Shown: piece after piece, positions 22,775-37,825 of the stretch
How positions within the stretch are numbered: the stretch's first letter is position 1
Layout: the number at the start of each line of letters is the position of its first letter
From: a virus
Taxonomy: Duplodnaviria; Heunggongvirae; Uroviricota; Caudoviricetes
Length of the DNA: 38,095 nt
IMG/VR virus record: IMGVR_UViG_2526164613_000026
Strand: one strand, 5' to 3'
Notes under the pieces: model-generated
Told to the model about the DNA's origin: nothing
The model's database searches: none
What the model saw: the letters and a program-made list of their open reading frames with translations, nothing else
Position numbers and translations under genes: made by a program

Positions 22775-22962
22775 GGAACCACCTGCCCCCACCTGGAACC
22801 ACCTTTTCCTAACCTTTCCCTCAATCGACTTATATATATATATGGGGTTTCTAGTAGAAAGGCGGTTCCAGTGGTTCCAGTGGTTCCGCCCCGCTTGCCA
22901 CAAGGTCTGCAAGGTGGAACCACCTTCTCTTTTAGGTGGTTCCGCGTGGTTCCAGCGGTTCC
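22775..22962. repeat. Iteron cluster, putative replication origin
   Basis: Nine GGAACC/GGTTCC hexamers counted by hand (consensus about AGGTGGTTCCA): three in one orientation at 22775, 22795, 22916 and six inverted at 22864, 22873, 22882, 22938, 22948, 22957. They flank a (TA)n tract TATATATATATAT at 22831..22843 and overlap the primase-helicase 3' end. Confidence 0.65.
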
Positions 22963-25118
22963 CAAACCTTGCATTTTTTCCCCCCAATTCGCCTTTGGGC
23001 ACGCTTATACCCGCAATTTTGCAAAACATTACTAATTCGCATTTCTTCGCGTTTTCCGATGCGGTCAGGATTTAGCCCAATCGCATCACGCAAAACATCA
23101 CTTGCGCGTAAAAATTCGCAATTTCGCGGAAGTTCATTAGTCATCAGGTCTGGCGTGTCGAGCCATTTCTCTACCGTTTCAAGCCAAGCATCCTTGATGG
23201 TGTACTGTTCATGGACACTCGCTGCCAGTTGTTCAGCCTCACGGAACTGGATACCCCCCAGACGCTGAAACACCTCACGAGCCTCAGCCCAAAGTAAAAG
23301 GAGATCTCTTTTTATCACTTTCACGTCGACTTTCGACACTTCCACGGGGAGCCAGCGACGGTTACCAGTCTTGTCCGCAAGGAATTCGTCCTCATTGGTG
23401 GTACCAACGAACACCAAGCGACGAGGAAACTGGGTGGCGAACTCCCGGTATTTCGGGATCCAGTTTTCGTGAGTACGCGTCACAAACGCTTTGATTGACT
23501 CCAGCTCTTTGGTATTAAGTCCGCGCAGTTCACCAATCTCTGCCACCAGCCGACCACGCATTTTTCGAGCGAGATCATCGTCTTTTTCGGCAAAAGAGAT
23601 TTCAGTAAAAAACGCAGGATCAGGGCTCAGTGCCTCCACTCCGGAAGACTTACCGCAGCCCTGCGGACCAACGAGGATCGGCACCATATCCGCTTTGATG
23701 CCTGGCTCCAGTACTCGCCCCGCCAACGCGGTCCACATGTACATAGACACCGCACGGGTATAAGGCGTGTCGGCTGTACCGAAGTGCGTATGGTAGAAAC
23801 ATTCGATGCGCGGCACGCCATCCCACTCCAGCCCGTTCAGCCAGGTGATCGCTGAATCGAATGGTTGTTCATCGGCTGCAAGTAACACCACATCGCGAAT
23901 AAGTTCACGACCAACAGGTTTAAATCCCCGCTTTTCCATCGTGATGCGCAGGCGCGCATAATCCGCATCGGTGAATGCCCGCCATTGTCCGGATCCTGCA
24001 GGGGCAAACATGATTTCGTCGCGGAACTGGTCAAAGCGAATATCGATGTCCACAAAATCAGGGCGTACTACTGCTTTGGCTGCGTTGCTGATGGTTGCCT
24101 CGATACGCCCCCATTTATCACGCTCGAAAGCAGGCAGCGGTAAAGGTTCCGCCACTTCGGTGCTGGTCAGATCTTCGAAATCGTCGTTGCGGATCCCGAT
24201 GGCATTAAGGAAATCTCCGTCATCACGATGCGCACAACTGGCATGCAGGCATTTAAAATGCCCCTGCTCAAAGCCCGCGGTTCCCGCAGGAAAATAAGCT
24301 GTGCTTGTTGGATCGCCCCCGCTACTGTGGCCGTCTTCAAACGGACAGCGGATATATCGTTCACCATTTGCGCCATCCAGCAGCGTCCAGCCATTGGCAT
24401 CAAGATATTCAGCTGTATCATCCGTCGCGCCGGGCGTGAATGCTGATCGGTCGCGCATCTTCGTGTTGCCCGCTTCGGTGGTTACCGACACAGGGAGTTG
24501 TTCAGCCAGGCGCTGCCACAGCGTTTCAAGCTGCTCACCAGTAATAGCCGGAGGTTCATCCGGCAAACCACCGTCCCATTCAATACGCGCGCCGCTGCTG
24601 TGCGTACCACAGGCAACGAACTGCTGCCCGTTCGCCAGCAACTCGATAATGCCCATATCCCCCGCCAGGCGATGGATACGCTTACGGAAATCACCATCAA
24701 CGGCCAGCAGATACAGACACTTATTACTGTTTGCTCGCCAGCGTCGCGGCGGCAACTCCCCCAGAAGTTGCACAAGCGTTTTGCGAATATCTGCCTGAAT
24801 GTCTTCATCTTCGCTATCGCAGTCCAGCGCCAGCCAGCCATGGCCTGTACGCACGCAGATGCCATAATCCGGTTCATTCGACCAGCGGGCAAAATCATGC
24901 TCAGTAGCAACATACCCGGTCCATTGAGCAATACCGGTGACCTGGCGGTCCCGGTTATAGCGACTTGGCGTCTTACCCAGCGCTTTCAGTTTACTATCAG
25001 GGGATATAGTCGCACCGGGGTTACATACAACTGGGAGAAGATGATCAGTTCTCCCCAATACCAGGTCGAAATGAAACCACTCATCAGGCGTAGCTCCCCA
25101 TGGTTTGCTATCGGACAT
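22932..25118 (-). CDS. Replicative primase-helicase (PrimPol-like N-terminus plus VirE-type P-loop C-terminus, P4 alpha-like architecture)
   Basis: 728 aa, ATG at 25118, 3 nt after Cro-like stop. Walker A ILVGPQGCGKSS and Walker B-like RLVFVGTTNE in the C-terminal half. Last codons are encoded by the iteron repeats. Confidence 0.8.
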   Translation of the reverse strand: MSDSKPWGATPDEWFHFDLVLGRTDHLLPVVCNPGATISPDSKLKALGKTPSRYNRDRQVTGIAQWTGYVATEHDFARWSNEPDYGICVRTGHGWLALDCDSEDEDIQADIRKTLVQLLGELPPRRWRANSNKCLYLLAVDGDFRKRIHRLAGDMGIIELLANGQQFVACGTHSSGARIEWDGGLPDEPPAITGEQLETLWQRLAEQLPVSVTTEAGNTKMRDRSAFTPGATDDTAEYLDANGWTLLDGANGERYIRCPFEDGHSSGGDPTSTAYFPAGTAGFEQGHFKCLHASCAHRDDGDFLNAIGIRNDDFEDLTSTEVAEPLPLPAFERDKWGRIEATISNAAKAVVRPDFVDIDIRFDQFRDEIMFAPAGSGQWRAFTDADYARLRITMEKRGFKPVGRELIRDVVLLAADEQPFDSAITWLNGLEWDGVPRIECFYHTHFGTADTPYTRAVSMYMWTALAGRVLEPGIKADMVPILVGPQGCGKSSGVEALSPDPAFFTEISFAEKDDDLARKMRGRLVAEIGELRGLNTKELESIKAFVTRTHENWIPKYREFATQFPRRLVFVGTTNEDEFLADKTGNRRWLPVEVSKVDVKVIKRDLLLLWAEAREVFQRLGGIQFREAEQLAASVHEQYTIKDAWLETVEKWLDTPDLMTNELPRNCEFLRASDVLRDAIGLNPDRIGKREEMRISNVLQNCGYKRAQRRIGGKKCKVWEPLEPRGTT

Positions 25119-25121
25119 GGG

Positions 25122-25334
25122 TTAAGCCTTTTTATCGTTTTGTGAGCCATACAACAGCCAATTAGGGTCGCAATCCAATGCTATAGACATTTCAAGAAGA
25201 TAACGTGGCCGAGCAATAACACCACTTTCAATTCTGTTTATTGCCTGCTGGCTCACTCCTGTGAGCTCAGCCAACGTAACTTGCGTCATTTTGAGTTCTT
25301 TACGTCGTTCTTTTACTCGGGTCGCTAAGGTCAT
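25122..25334 (-). CDS. Cro-like XRE-family HTH regulator
   Basis: ORF track starts at TTG 25352. ATG at 25334 has GAGGTG 6 nt upstream (70 aa). HTH pattern QVTLAELTGVSQQAINRIESG. Divergent from repressor gene. Confidence 0.7.
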   Translation of the reverse strand: MTLATRVKERRKELKMTQVTLAELTGVSQQAINRIESGVIARPRYLLEMSIALDCDPNWLLYGSQNDKKA

Positions 25335-25454
25335 TGCTTTCACCTCATACAATTTTAGTGGTATTTAGCAACAACAAACGGGGTTTGTCAAATACAACAA
25401 AAATTGTTTTTAATGTGGGTATACACATTAATACAACCCAGAAGGACTAATCCC
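25335..25454. promoter_or_regulatory. Divergent immunity-region promoter/operator interval
   Basis: Perfect -35 TTGACA on the minus strand (plus 25386..25391) directed toward cro. Overlapping inverted repeat ACAAAC-GGGG-TTTGT (about 25371..25386) plus further ACAA/TTGT half-sites. Confidence 0.5.
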
Positions 25455-26078
25455 ATGTCTCTCGCAGCCCGTTTTAAAGCACGTCGTTTGGAATTAGGAA
25501 TGACTCAAGTGGAAGTAGCGAATTCTGCAGGGGTTAGCCAACAATCCATAGAATCCATCGAAAGTGGACGAACCAAAAAGCCACGCAATCTTCTGGATCT
25601 GGCTAAGGCCTTGAAATGTAGCCCAGACTGGCTACTGAACGGTAAAAATATTATGCCTCTCGCGGAGATAAGTACCAGACGCATACCTATATTAAGTTAC
25701 ATTCAGGCAGGAGAGCTTACAGAAGCAAGAGACATAACAGATCTGACAGGGGAATTTGAATATATTTTGGCAGACTCTGACATTCCAGAAACATGCTTCG
25801 CATTACGTATTGATGGCGACAGCATGCAACCAGAGTTTAAAGAAGGAGACATTGTTATCATCGATCCTGATCTATGTCCTGCACCAGGGGAGTTTGTTGT
25901 CGCCAAAAACGACGGTCACGAAGCTACATTTAAAAAATACCGTCCATTAGGAATCGGCATCGACGACTTTGAATTAATCCCCCTAAATCCTGATTACCCT
26001 ATTTTTCGTAGTGCAGATATGAACTTACAGATCATAGGTGTAATGATCGAACACCGTATTTACCGCCGTAAACGTTAG
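25455..26078 (+). CDS. CI-like repressor (N-terminal HTH, C-terminal S24 LexA-like peptidase)
   Basis: ORF track starts at TTG 25404. ATG at 25455 has AAGGA upstream (207 aa). HTH QVEVANSAGVSQQSIESIESG. C-terminal catalytic-type pattern (DGDSM...K) as in lambda CI/LexA. Confidence 0.85.
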   Translation: MSLAARFKARRLELGMTQVEVANSAGVSQQSIESIESGRTKKPRNLLDLAKALKCSPDWLLNGKNIMPLAEISTRRIPILSYIQAGELTEARDITDLTGEFEYILADSDIPETCFALRIDGDSMQPEFKEGDIVIIDPDLCPAPGEFVVAKNDGHEATFKKYRPLGIGIDDFELIPLNPDYPIFRSADMNLQIIGVMIEHRIYRRKR

Positions 26079-26097: not shown

Positions 26098-26117
26098 GGG
26101 AGGCGTAACAGCCTCCC
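26098..26117 (+). terminator. Hairpin after repressor gene (weak terminator)
   Basis: GGGAGGC-GTAACA-GCCTCCC, perfect 7-bp stem 20 nt after cI stop. Trailing U-tract is poor. Confidence 0.4.
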
Positions 26118-26191
26118 TTACCCCATTTGTAAAGTCTTACAAATTAAATTCACTTAAATATCAATAAAGTAGTATTCACATCCCACAAAAT

Positions 26192-26213
26192 ACCACGTTT
26201 GTGGTTTACACAA
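26192..26213. promoter_or_regulatory. Operator-like inverted repeat upstream of the rightward early operon (OL-like position)
   Basis: CCACAAA-N8-TTTGTGG, sharing the ACAAA/TTTGT half-site with the cI-cro intergenic palindrome. Followed by promoter-like TTTACA-17-TATCTT. Confidence 0.35.
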
Positions 26214-26400
26214 TACAACTCAAATTGTATCTTTAGCCACAAGTCGAACGGCGCGACTCTAAACCATGCGTCGGGACCGTGGCGGGACAGGATGTCGGCA
26301 ATACGGGTCAGTAAGTTCCCTTTGGGGTGCGGCGAAGCACTGTCTACTGATACAAGTCGAAGCCGCCGAACCACCAAAGTGAACTGAATGAGGAAACGGC

Positions 26401-26595
26401 GTGAAAACGTATAAACCGCTCAAAGGTGAATGCCCTGCTTGCCAAACACAGCTTCAGACACCAAAGCCAAAACGATACCAAATCAACGAATGTTATGAGC
26501 ACTGCCCTGGATGTGGTGCTTTCCTGCATACCATTGCAACGCACTGGCGTGTCCGCTTCAACCTTGTGGTACCACGTACGCACAATACCAACTGA
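26401..26595 (+). CDS. Small Zn-ribbon protein, 64 aa
   Basis: GTG start with GAGGAA 6 nt upstream. Two Cys pairs (CPAC ... CPGC). First gene after the OL-like promoter. Confidence 0.45.
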   Translation: MKTYKPLKGECPACQTQLQTPKPKRYQINECYEHCPGCGAFLHTIATHWRVRFNLVVPRTHNTN

Positions 26596-26626
26596 ATCAT
26601 CCATGTAATTGCTGTGTGTAGTCTTT

Positions 26627-26654
26627 GCCCGCCGCAAGTGACGGGCTTTTTTAT
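26627..26654 (+). terminator. Intrinsic terminator after the Zn-ribbon gene
   Basis: GC-rich stem (GCCCGCC ... CGGGC) followed by TTTTTTAT. Confidence 0.55.
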
Positions 26655-26711
26655 GTCTGAAAGCGCACTCGCAACAGCGCGCTCCCCGATATGAAAAAAG
26701 GAATACAACCG

Positions 26712-26861
26712 ATGAAACCTGAACACCTCTATCGACTGACGGGGCGCGATGTTCTCCGTTATCGCCGTAAAAACTTCGATTTGATGACCGGTCTGGCCGT
26801 TGCCACTGCGCTCGGTCTGATCATCACTTTCATTCTCCTTGTAGCGAGGACCATAGTATGA
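26712..26861 (+). CDS. Small membrane protein, 49 aa
   Basis: Hand-translated [55 protein letters not shown] 8 nt upstream. TGA overlaps ATG of next gene. Below ORF-track cutoff. Confidence 0.3.
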   Translation: MKPEHLYRLTGRDVLRYRRKNFDLMTGLAVATALGLIITFILLVARTIV

Positions 26862-27762: not shown

Positions 27763-29064
27763 ATGCCAGACGTTCATGCACAACTTTCTCCATCATCAGC
27801 GCATCGATGGATGCGCTGCCCAGGAAGTCTGGCGCTGGAGGCCACACAACCGGATAAAGAAACAACTTTTGCAATCGAGGGCACTGCAGCGCACGCGCTT
27901 GCTGAAAAAGTTCTACGAAACAGGCAAAGCCACCCGGAACACTACGCCGGATGCAATGTTTCTATGTTTCTCGGCTCATACCCCCTTCGCGAAAATCCTG
28001 ATAATACATCTGGCCCACAGGTGGATGATGAAATGGTCGAAGCCGTTGGCCGGTATGTTGATACGGTCTGGACTCTTGCACAGAATAATGAACTATTGGT
28101 TGAACAACGTGTTGATTTCTCACATATAACGGGGGTGGAAGAATCTTTCGGAACTGCCGACGGCATAATCATCGCTGGTAACGAATTACAAATCCACGAC
28201 CTGAAATATGGCAAAGGCGTCCGCATTGATGCAGAACAAAATGAGCAACTACAACTGTATGCTCTGGGTGCGCTCGAACAATTCAGCATGCTGTATGACT
28301 TTGAGACTGTAAGATTATTTATTCACCAGCCAAGGCTCAACCACGTTTCAGAATGGTCGTTAACCGTACAGGAACTTCAGTCTTTCGGTGAACGGGCACA
28401 GGAGGCCGCAACCAGTGCGATCCTTGTTCTCAATATTGCTGAATGCGAAGGCATTGAGACACTACCGCTGGAAAACTTCATACCTGGAGAAAAACAGTGC
28501 CGCTTCTGTAAAGCAAAAGCTATTTGCACTGCCCAGAAAATGCAGCATTTACAAACAGCGGCCAGCGATTTTGAAGATCTGACAAAGCCTGTCAGCGAAA
28601 TAATCACCAATGCCAGCGCACGTGTACCTCTGTTAACCATTGAGCAGCTTGCGGAGATCTATAGCCAGGCCGACTTTATTGAATCCTGGCTAAAGGCAGT
28701 ACGAGACCGGGTTCACAATGAACTCAATGCCGGACATCCGGTACCGGGGTTTAAACTGGTAACAGGAAAACAAGGTAACCGGGCCTGGAGTGATGAAGAG
28801 GCAGCACGCGCACTTCTGAAGGACCAGTTCAGGTACAAAACTGAAGAAGTATTCGACTTTAAACTTATTAGCCCCACAAAAGCCGAAAAACTTATCAAAA
28901 AGGCCAGTCCGCGCCGTTGGTCAAAAGTCGAGGCACTGATAACACGAGCTGATGGTAAACCCACCGTCGTTCCCGAGTCAGACCCACGCCCCGCACTCAA
29001 TATCAACCCTATAAATGATTTCGACGACGTATCCGACGATACGCTAACCGCAGACCTCATCTGA
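27763..29064 (+). CDS. PD-(D/E)XK (Cas4/RecB-like) nuclease, DUF2800-type
   Basis: 433 aa. N-terminal [15 protein letters not shown] and C-terminal Cys cluster [10 protein letters not shown] as recalled for this family, which co-occurs with family-A polymerases in phage replication modules. Confidence 0.7.
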
Positions 29065-29079
29065 TTTAAGGAAATCCCC

Positions 29080-29628
29080 ATGAAACTGAAGCTGAACAAT
29101 GTTCGTCTGGCCTTCCCGTCTCTGTTTGAAGCTAAAACTGTAAACGGCGAAGGCGATCCACGTTTCTCCGCAGTATTTTTAATGTCACCCAAACACCCAC
29201 AACTGGAAGAAATCCGTAAAGCTATGAAGCAGGTAGCGAAGGAAAAATGGGGAGAGAAGTGGGAGCCCATTTATAACCAGCTGGAGAAAAAACTCAATCT
29301 GTGCCTGCATGATGGTGATGAAAAAGCAGAGTATGAAGGCTTTCCCAGTAATTTCTTCCTGAATGCTGCTAACAAAGCGCGCCCAGCTGTTCTTGATCGC
29401 GATCGTTCGCCACTTATTCAGGCTGACGGACGTCCCTATGCAGGGTGCTATGTAAACGCCGTTATCGATATCTGGGCACAGGACAATAATTTCGGTAAAC
29501 GCATTAATGCCTCACTCGGCGGAGTCCAGTTCCTGCGAGACGGCGATGCATTCGCTGGCGGCGGAGTGGCAAGCGCTGACGATTTCGACGATATCAGCGA
29601 AGGTGCTGATGCTGAAGCACTAATTTAA
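29080..29628 (+). CDS. DUF2815-type protein (SSB-like, replication module)
   Basis: 182 aa, ATG with AAGGAA upstream. N-terminal MKLKLNNVRLAFPSLFE pattern. Conserved partner of the DUF2800 nuclease and PolA. Confidence 0.65.
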   Translation: MKLKLNNVRLAFPSLFEAKTVNGEGDPRFSAVFLMSPKHPQLEEIRKAMKQVAKEKWGEKWEPIYNQLEKKLNLCLHDGDEKAEYEGFPSNFFLNAANKARPAVLDRDRSPLIQADGRPYAGCYVNAVIDIWAQDNNFGKRINASLGGVQFLRDGDAFAGGGVASADDFDDISEGADAEALI

Positions 29629-30356: not shown

Positions 30357-32420
30357 ATGTCCAATATACTATGGGGCGACCTGGAAACCTATTGCGAAAT
30401 CCCTATTACGAACGGTACCCATGCGTATGCCGAAGGCGTTGAAGTGATGCTTTTCGCATGGGCTATCAACGACGGGCCAGTAAACGTGTGGGATATCACT
30501 GCCGGTGGTGGTATTCCACACGGCTTATACGAAGCAATCGCAGCCCCTGAAACCCTGCTTTATTTCCATAACTCTCACTTCGACCGCACCGTTCTGCGTT
30601 ATGCAATGCCGCGACTGGCACCGCCAGTCGAACGTTGGCGCGACACGATGGTGCAGGCGCTGGCGCACGGTCTCCCGGGGTCTCTGGGGGAACTCTGCGA
30701 AATACTAGGCGTCCCGCAAGACAAAGCGAAGAACAAAGAAGGTAAAGCGCTGATCCAGCTGTTCTGTAAGCCACGCCCGAAAAACAGCAAACTGCGCCGT
30801 GCCACCAGCAAAACCCACCCGGAAGAATGGCGGCGCTTTGTTGCTTACGCCGGACTGGATATCGAGGCAATGCGCGAAGTCTATAAACGTCTGCCGAAGT
30901 GGAATTATCAGGGGACAGAGCTGGCGCTCTGGCATCGTGATCAGCAGATCAACGACCGGGGCGTCTGCATGGACATGCAACTCGCGCGCGCTGCGATCGA
31001 AGCGGTAGACCAGGAGCAAAAGCGCCTAGCAAAGCGTACACAGGAAATGACTGATGGCGAAGTGCAGGCAGCCACACAACGAGACGCGTTGATTAAGCAC
31101 ATTGTTGAATCCTACGGTGTGGAGCTACCAGACATGCAACGCAGTACTCTGGAACGTCGTATTGCCGACCCCCATTTACCATCTGCCGTGAAAGAACTGC
31201 TGGCTATCCGCCTGCAAGCCAGTACTACCAGCACCAGTAAATACAAGGCACTGATGAAAGGCGTAAGCCACGACGGGCGCTTACGCGGTACGCTACAGTT
31301 CTGCGGGGCGTCACGTACCGGTCGTTGGGCCGGACGGCTATTCCAGCCCCAGAACCTTCCCCGCCCTTCACTAAAACAGGAACAAATAGACGAAGGCATC
31401 GAAGCACTGAAAGCCGGATGTGCAGACCTGCTGTTTGACAATATCATGGAACTAACCAGTTCAGCGTTACGTGGCTGCATTATCGCGCCAACAGGCAAAA
31501 AACTGGTGGTAAGTGACTTGTCGAATATTGAAGGCCGTATGCTGGCATGGCTGGCGGGAGAAGAATGGAAACTGAATGCATTCAGAGAGTACGACGCCGG
31601 AACGGGTCCAGACTTATATAAACTGGCGTATGCAAAAGCTTTCGATATTGCACCAGATGATGTTGATAAACACATGCGTCAGATCGGTAAAGTCATGGAA
31701 CTCGGTCTGGGTTATGGAGGTGGTGTATCGGCTTTCATCACTTTTGCTCTGGTTTACGGTCTAGATCTCGACGAGCTGGCGAACGCCGCACTGCCAAACA
31801 TTCCCCGCGATGTTATCCGCGAGGCGAAAAGCTGGTACAACGAATCGGTTAAACATAAGTCGACCTTTGGCCTGTCCGAGCGTGTATTCATCGCATGTGA
31901 CTCGCTCAAGCGCCTGTGGCGCAGGGCGCACCCGGCGACCTGCGATTTCTGGTACGAGCTGGAGCGCACTGTCCGCACAGCAATCGCCACACCGCAAAAA
32001 ACATTGTATTGCGGCTATCTTAAAATCCGACGTGATGGCGCGTGGCTGCGCATACAGCTGCCATCTGGACGCGCTGTATGCTACCCGTCTCCGATTATCG
32101 AAAAAGGGAATATCACCTATATGGGTGTTAACTCTTATTCGCGTAAATGGCAACGACTCAAAACCTACGGCGGAAAGCTGGTAGAGAACGTCACCCAGGC
32201 GGCCGCCCGCGACGTTCTGGCCGGAAACATGCCGCTTATCGAAGATGCCGGTTACAGCATTGTGCTGACGGTACACGACGAGGTGATCACCGAAGCACCT
32301 AACACAGAAGATTTCAACGATAAAGCGCTTTCCGCGCTTCTCTCCACTAACCCCGAATGGGCGCCCGATATCCCACTGAACGCTGGCGGTTTTGAAGCGT
32401 ACCACTACCGTAAGGACTGA
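30357..32420 (+). CDS. DNA polymerase I family (family A) with N-terminal 3'-5' exonuclease-like domain
   Basis: 687 aa, ATG with AAGG upstream. Polymerase motifs seen directly: [15 protein letters not shown] (motif A-like), [16 protein letters not shown] (motif B-like), LTVHDEVI (motif C). Confidence 0.9.
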
Positions 32421-34637: not shown

Positions 34638-36029
34638 ATGATAACTTTTAAACCACGTCCCTACCAAGATCTCATCATCAATCATCAAATCGAGACCCTG
34701 CGCGGCAACATCTGGGCAGGGATGGGGATGGGTAAAACCGTAGCGACACTCACCACGCTGGAAGATCTTTTCATGGCTGGAGCAGAAACACGCCCCGCGC
34801 TGGTCCTCGCGCCGCTACGCGTTGCAGCAAGCACTTGGCCTGATGAAGCTGTTAAATGGGGGCATCTGCGTAATATTGAGGTACAGCCGATCATCGGTAA
34901 CGCCAAAGCGCGCTCTACAGCGCTGGCGAACAGCAACGCGAGCGTGTTCACAATCAACTACGATAACCTTGTCTGGCTGGTTGAAGAATTGGGAGAACGA
35001 TGGCCGTTCGGTACTGTCATTCCAGATGAAAGCACCCGGCTAAAATCCTTCCGGCTGCGAGGTGGTGGTAAGCGCGCGGCGGCGCTGGGCAAAGTGGCGC
35101 ACAAGTATGTCCGGCGCTGGATAAATCTCACCGGTACGCCAGCACCGAACGGCCTGGTAGATTTGTGGGGACAATCGTGGTTTGTGGACCAGGGGCAACG
35201 TCTCGGGCGCACTTACGGTGCGTTTACCTCACGCTGGTTCAAATCGATACAGTTTCCGGGGCAGAGCTGGACCAAACTGGAGCCTTTTGCTCACTCACAG
35301 GGTGAAATACAGCGAGCGTTAGCCGATGTGACCCTCTCGCTGGATGCAGCCGACTGGTTCGATATCAAAGACCCCATCCATAACGTAATCCGCGTGGATA
35401 TGCCGCCGAAGGCCCGTCAGCAGTATCGTGAAATGGAAAAGGAAATGTTCCTCGAGCTGAATGGCGAAGGCATCGAAGCACCGAACGCCGCGGCAAAGAC
35501 ACTGAAGTGTCTGCAAATCGCCAGCGGCGCAGTATACACAGATGACACCGGAAGTTGGTCAGAACTGCATGACACCAAACTACAGGCGCTGGACAGCATA
35601 CTGACCGAAGCAGCTGGCGCACCTGTGCTGGTTGCTTATCACTGGAAACACGATCTTGAACGCTTGCTTAAAGCATTTCCTCGCGGTCGTCACCTCGACC
35701 AGGATCCACAGACACTACGTGACTGGAATTCCGGAAAGATTCCTGTTCTCTTTGCACACCCAGCCAGCGCGGGCCACGGTCTGAACATGCAGGACGGCGG
35801 AAACATACTGGTATTTTTCTCACATTGGTGGGACCTGGAGCAGTATCAGCAAATTATTGAACGTATCGGCCCAACCAGACAGATACAGGCCGGACACAAT
35901 CGTCCGGTATTTATTCACCACATTATTGCTGCCGACACTATGGACGAAATGGTGATGGAGCGGCGCAACTCAAAACGAACAGTGCAGGACATCCTGCTCG
36001 ATGCCATGAAAAAGAGAGGTATAGCATGA
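34638..36029 (+). CDS. SNF2/DEAD-like helicase
   Basis: 463 aa. Walker A GMGMGKT, DEAD-like box IPDESTRL, C-terminal helicase domain. Confidence 0.85.
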   Translation: MITFKPRPYQDLIINHQIETLRGNIWAGMGMGKTVATLTTLEDLFMAGAETRPALVLAPLRVAASTWPDEAVKWGHLRNIEVQPIIGNAKARSTALANSNASVFTINYDNLVWLVEELGERWPFGTVIPDESTRLKSFRLRGGGKRAAALGKVAHKYVRRWINLTGTPAPNGLVDLWGQSWFVDQGQRLGRTYGAFTSRWFKSIQFPGQSWTKLEPFAHSQGEIQRALADVTLSLDAADWFDIKDPIHNVIRVDMPPKARQQYREMEKEMFLELNGEGIEAPNAAAKTLKCLQIASGAVYTDDTGSWSELHDTKLQALDSILTEAAGAPVLVAYHWKHDLERLLKAFPRGRHLDQDPQTLRDWNSGKIPVLFAHPASAGHGLNMQDGGNILVFFSHWWDLEQYQQIIERIGPTRQIQAGHNRPVFIHHIIAADTMDEMVMERRNSKRTVQDILLDAMKKRGIA

Positions 36030-36226
36030 GCGAGAAACCCGACGATTTACTCACCCCGGATGAAGTATGCCAAAAGTTAGGTATTACACAGAAAACGCTA
36101 TGTGAGTGGAATATTAAGCATCGTCATCGGGCTATCCTGGCACCAATTCGTTTCAGTGCAAAAGTAGTTCGTTATGAGCGCCGAAATGTCGACGCTTTTA
36201 TTCAAAAATGTCGCAGCCAGTATTAA
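36026..36226 (+). CDS. AlpA/Xis-like excisionase or small HTH regulator
   Basis: 66 aa, ATG overlaps helicase stop. Pattern LLTPDEVCQKLGITQKTLCEW is typical of AlpA-family HTH proteins. Converges on the integrase gene. Confidence 0.65.
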   Translation: MSEKPDDLLTPDEVCQKLGITQKTLCEWNIKHRHRAILAPIRFSAKVVRYERRNVDAFIQKCRSQY

Positions 36227-37620
36227 CCTCGCCGCCGTAGCAATGCCACCTGCGCAAGTATGCTCCGCTCGTGAGCCTCGAAAGCTTCGCGCTTCAACGC
36301 AATCTCTTCCTGTAAAATCTCATCAGAAAAGTCGTAATGTTCTGCCATCGGGTCATCTGACTTGCTGGAGTGGTGAAGGCAAAGGAGGCTGATTTCCCTT
36401 CGGTCTGAGCGGGAATAGCCTCTTTCCTTCATCAAGGCAATAACATTGCTCTTAAGGAATTTACGGCACATCGTATTAAATGCACCGTCTTTCCCTTTAA
36501 CAGTTCCATCATGTTTTATTCCTTTTACAGCCCCGTCCGGGCTGTATGTTTTCACCAGCTTATCCAGTGATCGTTTTGAAAATGGCTGCATTGGATCACG
36601 TGGCTGCAAAAATACATAATCCCTGTTGCACTCAGGAACTGAATCACGCCAGGCTTTCTGCTCGTCGATAATCCGCCGGATCTCAGGCGTTATCGGCAGG
36701 CGGAAAGCCTTTTGTGTTTTCATAGCCCCTCGCATGCCGATAACCCCTTCCGGATAAACAATTTCACCAGCCTCCTCGTGAACGTAGTCCCAGCGCAGGT
36801 TATGGACATTAATCGGACGAACACCAGTGATGATCATGAAGCGAACAGCATTCTTCTGGTGTACAGAGGTGCAGGCAGCAACATTGAGCCAGAGTCGGGC
36901 GATTGATTCAATATCGGTAAAAAGCCGTGTGGGGGTAGGTTTCTGTACGCGGGAGGAAACATAATCATCTGGCAGACTGGCGGCAACATTGCGGCCGTTG
37001 CAAAGAGTAGGTGCGCAGAACTTCCAGAACCGACGGAGCTCGGCAAACAACTCCAGGGCGTTATTGTTCGAGCGAGTGGCGATCCACTCGTCCAGCACTT
37101 CCACCAGCCGACTGTATGTTACGTCGCTGAACACCTCGCGCTCGCCGAACGTTGATTTAATCCGGTCGATACGCACCCCATAGGTTGTGAAACTGTCCGG
37201 GCTCAGCTTCTGACGGGCTACTTTGGCTTTGAGGTCATCCCGGTACATTTCCAGCGCTGCATGTACGGACTCTGCCCGCAGTCCACCGTCAGCCATACCT
37301 AGTGCTTTTTCGCGCGCCAGCTGGATAGCGAGCTCCGGCCACTCGCCGAGCTTTTTACCTTTGAGGCCCATCTTTTTTGGAAACTCGGCGTAAAATGTAA
37401 CCTTACCGGCTTTGCTGAAATCGATACGGAGATAGTTCTCTTTTTCGTATTTGGAACGGCGAGCCACGCCGGAAGCAGCGAGGATGATTTTGGCGGCAGC
37501 AACACAGATTTTCATGTGTGCGCTGGTATAGGGGGGTTTACAGGCGTCCCATTTTTCAGAAGCGGCTAAAACATCGTCATTATTGGGGCTATCCGGATTA
37601 TGTGTTACAGTGCGCGGCAT
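36223..37620 (-). CDS. int: Tyrosine integrase
   Basis: ORF track starts at TTG 37626; ATG at 37620 has AAGGA 7 nt upstream (465 aa). Recombinase-like motifs (MIITGVRP, C-terminal LCLHHSSK...EHYDF). Terminal position next to a host gene. Confidence 0.8.
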   Translation of the reverse strand: MPRTVTHNPDSPNNDDVLAASEKWDACKPPYTSAHMKICVAAAKIILAASGVARRSKYEKENYLRIDFSKAGKVTFYAEFPKKMGLKGKKLGEWPELAIQLAREKALGMADGGLRAESVHAALEMYRDDLKAKVARQKLSPDSFTTYGVRIDRIKSTFGEREVFSDVTYSRLVEVLDEWIATRSNNNALELFAELRRFWKFCAPTLCNGRNVAASLPDDYVSSRVQKPTPTRLFTDIESIARLWLNVAACTSVHQKNAVRFMIITGVRPINVHNLRWDYVHEEAGEIVYPEGVIGMRGAMKTQKAFRLPITPEIRRIIDEQKAWRDSVPECNRDYVFLQPRDPMQPFSKRSLDKLVKTYSPDGAVKGIKHDGTVKGKDGAFNTMCRKFLKSNVIALMKERGYSRSDRREISLLCLHHSSKSDDPMAEHYDFSDEILQEEIALKREAFEAHERSILAQVALLRRRG

Positions 37621-37825
37621 TCTCAATCCTTATCTGCGTAGGCGCAGAAAACAAGCTCACACATACAAGTCTTTTCTACGGGACAAAATGCAATGTGTTG
37701 CGGTTTTGTGTTGCTGGACTGAGTTTATCAAGGTTAAATACACTGGATCAACATACAGTAAGTTAATGACAATAAAGCATACAAACTCGATACAACTTAC
37801 TGATTTTAAAATAATTTAACGGTAA

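Follow-up and report, generated by a model that had tools for sequence, protein, structure and literature searches.

A putL-type antiterminator RNA and an RprA-like terminator cassette in the early control region of an Enc34-like Escherichia coli prophage

How does an early transcript of a temperate phage get past a terminator that stands between its promoter and the replication genes? The question is raised by positions 26240-26654 (+ strand) of a 38,095-nt stretch of tailed-phage DNA, IMG/VR record IMGVR_UViG_2526164613_000026 (the whole stretch is called the window below), where a leader, a small open reading frame (ORF) and an intrinsic terminator follow an early promoter. The first-pass annotation compared this arrangement with lambda N and tL1 and suggested that the leader or the ORF product could take part in antitermination or attenuation. 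Judged by the sequence comparisons reported here, the studied stretch is in all likelihood the control region heading the CI-repressed early operon of an Enc34-like temperate E. coli prophage, and its leader very probably mediates antitermination by means of an RNA of the HK022 putL type. We also found that the terminator belongs to a cassette sharing an exact 23-nt sequence with the E. coli small RNA (sRNA) RprA.

In a distant blastn search of a phage collection, window positions 26229-26330 were 79-84% identical to HK022, HK75 and O276; for O276 and HK75, the records label the matched stretch 'putL: antiterminator RNA'. HK639 matched too, at its 'putL-like antiterminator RNA' (84% over the core). 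A put covariance model (R1) scored the window element at 92 bits (E 8e-23), compared with 40.7 bits for the HK022-type putR used as a positive control. The best other match of this model in the window reached 11.6 bits, so that no second put (a putR equivalent) was found there and this phage has one put, as in HK639. The element, located at 26242-26309 (+) by blastn, covariance model and a base-by-base pair check, lies at the 5' end of the predicted transcript; the -10 hexamer of the promoter ends at 26233. The suggestion that the leader is an antitermination candidate is borne out by this homology to HK022 put RNA.

The put (polymerase-utilisation) RNAs are cis-acting antiterminators that need no dedicated protein (PMC9378689). 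In the cryo-EM structures of HK022 putL (7XUE/7XUI), helices join residues 3-7 to 15-19 and 10-14 to 30-34, and A9 pairs with G35; stem II (36-72) contains three non-canonical pairs and a bulged U68, and a -10-like NANNAT element at +23 to +28 has been proposed to cause a sigma-dependent pause that aids folding (PMC9378689). HK022 position n corresponds to window position 26239 + n up to the apical loop of stem II. Mapped in this way, the window RNA contains the 5'-strand helix (26242-26246 with 26254-26258), stem I (26249-26253 with 26269-26273), the A.G platform (26248/26274) and stem II (26275-26309), the last with the internal loop GGC/CAA, an apical loop (A)GGA(U) and a bulge at G26305. 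It retains all 22 canonical pairs of the HK022 fold, and the three non-canonical pairs (A.G, G.A and C.A) are formed by the same bases. The HK022 residues A9, U28, G35 and A64, reported as critical, have unchanged equivalents, and C20, the one triplex-strand position that differs, is reported to be inert in HK022. At four pairs both bases differ from HK022 and pairing is maintained, which we read as compensatory change. The -10-like hexamer AACCAT (26262-26267) has the same sequence and the same position, +23 to +28, as in HK022 putL. The window and HK022 elements thus share the two-stem V fold with its 5' helix, A9.G35 platform and stem II internal loop, and a hairpin followed by six U residues (26627-26652) lies between put and the replication genes.

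We collected put cores from IMG/VR at more than 120 loci (~45 sequence variants) and computed pair statistics on 32 distinct variants. When these were placed on the published structure, 92.2% of cells were paired, compared with 77.4% in column shuffles and 24-47% with slid partners. The covariation score was 0.378 against 0.115 in shuffles, none of 500 shuffles reached it, and double changes occurred at 11 pairs. Because the search pattern prescribed the stem I core, that part carries no information, and it is the 5' helix and stem II that supply the covariation signal. The covariance model R1 was built from the alignment of these variants. An Enterobacter bugandensis prophage of like gene order has a put 100% identical to the window element, compared with 75% identity for the promoter, 74% for the following hairpin and 82% for the ORF. 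The put core was also found in species representatives of Morganella, Providencia, Erwinia, Pantoea, Mixta, Enterobacter, Kluyvera, Siccibacter, Izhakiella and Gilliamella. The bee-gut Gilliamella copies (Orbaceae; loci L320, L326 and L333) lie beyond the Enterobacterales and have a divergent stem II. Chimeric leaders also occur, in which put stem I is directly followed by boxA (…GCGTCGGAACCGCTCTTTAACAA…) replacing stem II (L056, L073, L325, L327; Mixta mediterraneensis).

The position of the leader corresponds to that of lambda N and tL1, as had been proposed: it follows an S24-type repressor gene and an operator-bearing promoter. A promoter scan placed this early promoter at 26185..26233 (+), with -35 TTTACA (26205-26210), -10 TATCTT (26228-26233), a sigma-70 match of 9/12 and a predicted transcript start at ~26240-26241, and the region aligns with the annotated -35 and -10 of an HK022-type PL. 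Operator-like palindromes at 26185-26202 and 26212-26230 overlap the promoter, and copies occur in the cro/cI intergenic region (25347-25411). The description 'OL-like' in the first-pass annotation fits because these palindromes recur between cro and cI, and it is upheld by the sigma-70 match as well. The palindromes common to 25347-25411 and 26185-26230 are of two kinds, ACAAA-N8-TTTGT and ATACAA-N6-TTGTAT, which suggests two DNA-binding specificities or a composite operator. As to the label 'rightward' that the operon had been given, the operon is on the same strand as the CI-like repressor gene and 3' of it, which makes it the counterpart of the leftward lambda PL operon; the replication genes do lie downstream, as claimed. 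In contrast to lambda, the PL-type operon of the window carries the replication genes.

The leader had further been described as GC-rich, ~150 nt long, potentially structured and carrying a direct repeat. It spans 161 nt (26240-26400) with a GC content of 57%; the window has 50%, and the promoter region immediately 5' of the leader 34%. The repeat, the 10-mer ACAAGTCGAA, is present within 1 nt of the positions given (26239-26248 and 26352-26361), and we estimate the chance expectation for such a pair in 160 nt at ~0.01. It is not conserved: copy 1 is the 5' strand of put, and copy 2, which lies in the variable apex of a hairpin, is changed to CAAGCCGAA or partly deleted in relatives, so that the repeat is probably incidental. 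The hairpin in question (26314-26385, +), long and imperfect, lies between put and the ribosome-binding site and accounts for the part of the predicted structure that stood up to folding (-29.9 kcal/mol, z = -4.3; 0/200 shuffles equally stable); the leader as a whole did not, as described below. Among nine distinct relatives it has 19 consensus pairs, none of them broken and two with compensatory changes, and its base is conserved across relatives with differing downstream ORFs while its apex varies in length and sequence. The lambda N leader contains an RNase III hairpin, and by analogy with it the window hairpin is probably an insulator of put folding from the following cargo or a processing site. 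At gathering thresholds, Rfam gave zero matches in the window, so that put is evidently not an Rfam family, and no riboswitch or leader family of Rfam matched the window in a permissive scan either.

Behind the leader, the ribosome-binding site GAGGAA (26390-26395) lies 5 nt upstream of the GTG that starts a 64-aa ORF (26401-26595, +) with CPAC and CPGC motifs; start codon, length, both Cys pairs and GAGGAA site are all as the first-pass annotation had them. It was also right that the product, a Cys-rich zinc ribbon, does not resemble the Arg-rich N. The three homologues keep all four Cys and most of the remaining residues unchanged, and comparison with the Enterobacter copy gave a dN/dS of 0.26 with differences mainly at third positions. 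On this sequence evidence we regard the ORF as a real gene. Homology searches made it a near-orphan: homologues exist, with three clusters in 5.8e9 proteins and three clusters at 50% identity in 1.84e9 representatives, and no Pfam family was assigned, all matches being below threshold (zf-IS66 at 24.3 with a cut-off of 27.3; Zn_ribbon_TFIIB at E 5e-4, below its cut-off). The PHROG match was weak, PADLOC gave none, and the AlphaFold model, built from four sequences, is of low confidence (pLDDT 63.8).

At least five unrelated ORFs occupy the slot behind the same put and before the same terminator cassette: a 33-aa acidic ORF, one of ~48-72 aa, one of 69 aa, a 174-aa beta-clamp-like one and the zinc-ribbon ORF, and the zinc-ribbon ORF is found 3' of boxA-type leaders too. 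Because the same put occurs with several ORFs and the same ORF with boxA leaders, leader and ORF assort independently, and the zinc-ribbon protein is therefore unlikely to be an antitermination partner; we regard its gene as exchangeable accessory cargo outside the antitermination mechanism. The slot appears to be a hot spot for small accessory genes, with products of 174 aa (L042, L054, L272), 58 aa (L285), 69 aa (L240) and 33 aa (L011, L294) at individual loci. They include a beta-clamp-like protein of 170-175 aa with the motif GTNGHRL/ATDGHRL and a second CxxC…CxxC zinc-ribbon protein, unrelated to that of the window.

Many relatives (about half) have, in place of put, a leader starting with a consensus boxA, CGCTCTTTAACAA. 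In these boxA-type leaders (L134, L138, L132, L145, L237, L243 and others) boxA is followed by ~190 nt of apparently structured RNA, for which no matching Rfam family was found; apart from the leader, these relatives agree with the window in promoter region, RprA-like terminator and downstream gene.

Homology, conservation of structure, position and modularity of the put element are established by these results, and several observations weigh against reading it as a working antiterminator. The stem II bulge is G26305 in the window and U68 in HK022, where deletion of U68 abolishes antitermination (PMC9378689); HK639 put, whose stem II sequence differs from that of the window, apparently has no bulge; and the upper part of stem II differs in length between window and HK022. 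Minimum-free-energy (MFE) folding was no better than that of shuffled sequence for the whole leader (z = -1.4) or for put alone (z = +0.8). The pseudoknot-like helix of put is invisible to MFE folding, which is why the published structure was tested by pair counting. Finally, read-through and polymerase binding at this locus are taken over by analogy from HK022. The bulge base and the upper stem length would fit a non-functional relic, received by recombination from an HK022-like phage. We consider this very improbable, as put is fully conserved between hosts while its flanks diverged, every pair and critical residue is kept, with compensatory changes, and the same put variant is present in many contigs.

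Little probability likewise attaches to a mechanism of the lambda N/nut type, in which the zinc-ribbon protein would bind leader RNA or polymerase and be required to pass the terminator. The gene does occupy the position of lambda N between early promoter and first terminator, and zinc ribbons are known in transcription factors, in line with the weak Zn_ribbon_TFIIB match. However, 26240-26400 contains no boxA (CGCTCTT...) and the leader no boxB, the first ORF encodes a Cys-rich zinc ribbon from a tiny family, and the leader is a put, a member of a protein-independent family (PMC9378689). Moreover, the gene lies 5' of the terminator and would be expressed whether or not the terminator is passed, and the exchange of ORFs behind identical put elements speaks against it as well. 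A role of the 64-aa protein in antitermination, which the first-pass annotation had considered, is not supported by these findings. Its other suggestion, attenuation, fares no better. Alternative folds of the leader, perhaps involving the ACAAGTCGAA repeat, would have to decide whether the terminator forms; the repeat could conceivably draw the CGACU strand away from the put 5' helix, and the leader is GC-rich with stable hairpins. We give this reading almost no credence: copy 2 of the repeat is altered or lost in relatives that keep put, hairpin and ORF, the terminator lies ~300 nt away behind a swappable ORF, which makes a conserved anti-terminator pairing impossible, no alternative leader-terminator pairing was found, and Rfam offers no riboswitch or leader family.

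Put-mediated read-through of the terminator into the replication genes remains the reading that we consider likely from the sequence. Upon loss of the repressor, RNA polymerase would start at ~26240, and the first 70 nt of the transcript would fold during synthesis into put, a two-stem V whose stem one is extended by the 5'-strand helix. We infer that the nascent put would bind the beta' zinc-binding domain of its own polymerase, travel along with it and suppress pausing and termination without a phage protein. Polymerases modified in this way would pass the terminator at 26627-26652 and continue into the replication and recombination genes, namely those for the DUF2800 nuclease, the Enc34-type single-stranded DNA-binding protein (SSB), PolA and the SNF2 helicase, while polymerases without a folded put would halt there.

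The terminator that has to be passed consists of the hairpin GCCCGCCGCAAGUGACGGGC (26627-26646) and U6 (26647-26652). An intrinsic terminator before the replication genes had been predicted, and this is the only clear one and the first of the operon; a simple scanner missed it because its loop exceeds the limit of 8. What had gone unseen is its likeness to RprA. A permissive Rfam scan matched 26547-26656 to RprA (RF00034) with 48.2 bits (E 9e-5), short of the gathering score (70). What drives the match is the exact identity AAUUGCUGUGUGUAGUCUUUGCCC followed by the terminator, whose hairpin the model aligns as terminator stem; the 5' half of the model aligned poorly, to ORF coding sequence. The arm AUUGCUGUGUGUAGUCUUUGCCC (26608-26630), which with the hairpin and U6 makes up the cassette (26608-26652, +), is identical at 23/23 nt to E. 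coli rprA (L123:632-654; a 22-mer plus the preceding A), the 3' end of which reads ...CGAAUUGCUGUGUGUAGUCUUUGCCCAUCUCCCACGAUGGGCUUUUUUUU.

RprAproc, the last 47 nt of RprA, is made by RNase E, accumulates in vivo alongside the full-length RNA and suffices for narP repression (PMC9262595, PMC6202311). Nucleotide 1 of RprAproc is precisely where the phage identity sets in; the RNase E site keeps its A and UU, and no stretch of the Rfam RprA consensus is more highly conserved than the arm. The window has the 3' module of RprAproc, comprising single-stranded arm, terminator hairpin and U tail, and lacks the 5' stem-loop and the central rpoS/narP-pairing region (~nt 30-70) of RprA. The E. coli RprA boxes AUCCCCUGAGU and ACGAAUU are absent from the window, and the former is present in the relatives L011 and L012. 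A box (CC)CCUGA(A/G)UCAUCCA located 5' of the 23-mer (26585-26607 in the window; L011, L012, L145 and others) often provides the stop codon of the cargo ORF; its window version, CAACUGAAUCAUCCA, contains the TGA of the zinc-ribbon ORF. This box resembles RprA AUCCCCUGAGU, which we take to be the rpoS-pairing region.

At least 120 viral contigs carry the 22-mer, with 41 distinct hairpin/tail variants 3' of it and unrelated sequence 5' of it. To avoid circularity, two samplings of loci were made independently of the arm, one via put and one via the gene downstream of the terminator (phrog_11981). The arm was exact in 12/12 matches of the put sample with five mismatches allowed; in the phrog_11981 sample it was exact at 56/75 loci and had one substitution at 16/75, with one GU repeat more or less at a few. 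In complete E. coli genomes we found 6,065 arm places in 5,424 genomes, ~640 of them beyond rprA, and 27 of these on plasmids. Other phage copies of the cassette scored 48-65.5 bits on the RprA model and are unannotated because these scores are just below the Rfam threshold. At least four upstream contexts of the cassette were seen in enterobacterial phage contigs (L125, L130, L150, L134, L138, L129, L146, L165, L233 and more than 100 other loci).

Phage Eeyore has another leader, of ~215 nt, that likewise lies directly after a CI-like repressor gene and ends in the cassette. Taking the relatives and Eeyore together, three kinds of early leader, namely put, boxA and the Eeyore kind, here called type b, thus have this cassette in common as their first terminator. 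Type b leaders (L125:4250-4800 (-), L130 and, in Eeyore, L234:3289-3930) are ~215 nt long and non-coding, with a strong promoter and an adjacent CI-like gene; they contain long hairpin arms, GAAAGCGCAYUCC/GGAGUGCGCUUCC, followed by GGUGGAGGCACCACC and then the RprA-like cassette. GenBank records place small hypothetical ORFs over them. Type b could be another RNA-based early-operon leader.

The invariant unpaired arm, the sharp conservation boundary and the A and UU kept at the processing site suggest to us that the cassette, a homologue of processed RprA, may release a ~45-nt Hfq-type sRNA from terminated or processed early transcripts, a proposal that we consider somewhat less likely than not. 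A mimic of RprAproc freed upon induction or infection, and thus a mobile sRNA, could act on the Hfq-dependent partners of host RprAproc or titrate them; conversely, the 3' half of RprA may be phage-derived. We hold this joint reading to be possible and somewhat doubtful. Against an sRNA role stand the expectation that efficient put read-through would cut the yield of terminator-ended RNA, the expected silence of the promoter in the lysogen, the lack of the rpoS-pairing boxes of RprA in the window copy and the Rfam score of 48.2, below 70. No target stands out in the window either: the best duplex of the 23-mer inside the window reached -21.8 kcal/mol, which lies within the range of shuffled seeds (-19.9 to -25.8).

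There is nearly an even chance that the cassette is a terminator only, sharing its arm with RprA by descent or through repeated phage-chromosome recombination and without an sRNA function in the phage. The arm always precedes a hairpin and U-run and always lies 3' of an antitermination-type leader (put, boxA or type b), conserved junction flanks are to be expected for a variable gene slot, and the scores of the phage copies and the unremarkable window duplex agree with this reading. On the other hand, intrinsic terminators need no 18 specific unpaired upstream nucleotides, and the hairpin varies freely (the 41 variants) where the arm is near-invariant even in the locus sample drawn independently of it. 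The onset of conservation at the RprAproc 5' end, the retention of A and UU at the RNase E site and the coincidence of the arm with the best-conserved stretch of Rfam RprA likewise point away from termination alone. As a variant, the arm might be kept for tuning termination efficiency or as a recombination junction for cargo swaps.

Two further ideas about the cassette were tried and rejected. ARAGORN found no tRNA genes 5' of those cassette copies that show T-arm-like hairpins there, and an attP origin by integration into rprA does not apply to the window, where the cassette lies ~10 kb from the integrase gene and inside the operon.

Several known systems are close to the window. As in HK022, put lies directly 3' of a CI-controlled promoter by the repressor gene, with ~80% identity and a terminator downstream. 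HK022 has putL and putR and its first downstream gene is nun, whereas the window has one put, a zinc-ribbon ORF as first gene and an RprA-like first terminator, in a genome that is not that of a lambda-like siphovirus but of an Enc34-like prophage with PolA, DUF2800 and VapE-primase genes. HK639 likewise has a single put in its left-operon leader and more structured RNA between put and the first gene (HM208537, where the feature is annotated as 126 nt), but no RprA-like cassette downstream. Lambda shares the order of repressor, operator/promoter, antitermination RNA, large hairpin, small first gene and first terminator in PL-nutL-N-tL1; it uses boxA/boxB and the Arg-rich N where the window has put and no protein is expected to be necessary. 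The cassette has the RprA and RprAproc order of arm, GC hairpin and U tail; unlike RprA, it lacks the 5' stem-loop, the rpoS-pairing region and a promoter of its own, phage ORF coding sequence standing in their place, and its hairpin sequence differs. A regulatory RNA that ends at the first terminator of an antiterminated operon has a parallel in StxS, the short PR' transcript of Stx phage (PMC7547250). In contrast to the cassette, for which function is proposed from sequence features, StxS comes from a constitutive late promoter, is unrelated in sequence and has a demonstrated function (PMC7547250).

Apart from the put RNAs, there is to our knowledge no well-understood case of a nascent RNA reprogramming bacterial RNA polymerase on its own, and only a small number of put RNAs have been described. 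The window adds a well-preserved put from a phage of quite another make-up, whose replication genes include PolA, DUF2800 and Enc34-SSB, and the family spans many Enterobacterales and Gilliamella. As put and boxA leaders are interchangeable modules at one position, they provide natural chimeras of RNA-based and factor-based antitermination. The put element is a known kind of RNA in an additional phage lineage, and this lineage may already figure in the King et al. 2011 survey of put-like RNAs. The RprA-like part is new with respect to our literature searches (RprA with prophage or phage; the motif sequence), which found no report of phage RprA-like elements. About one in nine E. coli genomes would hold additional, unannotated copies of what in RprA, a core stress sRNA, is the active 3' part; their expression would be tied to prophage induction, with consequences for RprA phenotypes and for the interpretation of multi-copy RNA-seq reads.

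The prophage of E. coli O55:H7 DEC5B is identical to the window over the studied region. Among 5,426 complete E. coli genomes, full-length copies of the window occur in 36 and partial matches in 215. RefSeq has no annotation from the repressor gene to the next small gene. The CI-like repressor gene (25404-26078, +) encodes HTH_3 and Peptidase_S24 domains, and a cro-like HTH gene (25122-25352) and a VapE-type primase gene (22932-25118) lie on the opposite strand. Downstream on the + strand are the genes for the DUF2800/PD-(D/E)XK nuclease (27763-29064), the Enc34-type SSB (29080-29628), a family-A DNA polymerase (30357-32420) and the SNF2-type helicase (34638-36029), and an integrase gene was identified with PHROG at 36223-37626.

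A stable hairpin, GGGAGGC-GUAACA-GCCUCCC (26098-26117, +; -16.1 kcal/mol, z = -4.1), follows the repressor gene and is probably the end of the repressor transcript. It has a weak U-run only, and read-through of the repressor transcript would run into the put operon. Another conserved hairpin, GAAAGCGCA...GCGCGCUCC (26657-26683, +; folding and relatives), lies between the terminator and the phrog_11981 gene. Its loop is variable in relatives, and the type b leader has at its 5' end a hairpin with the same arms and a longer loop. The phrog_11981 gene was mechanically called at 26691-26861 (+), and its likely true start is ATG 26712: PHROG, RefSeq and relatives all start there (MKPEHLY…), and residue 8 of the 26691 ORF is where the PHROG match sets in. 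From 26712 the product has 49 aa, and its C-terminal half is predicted to be hydrophobic.

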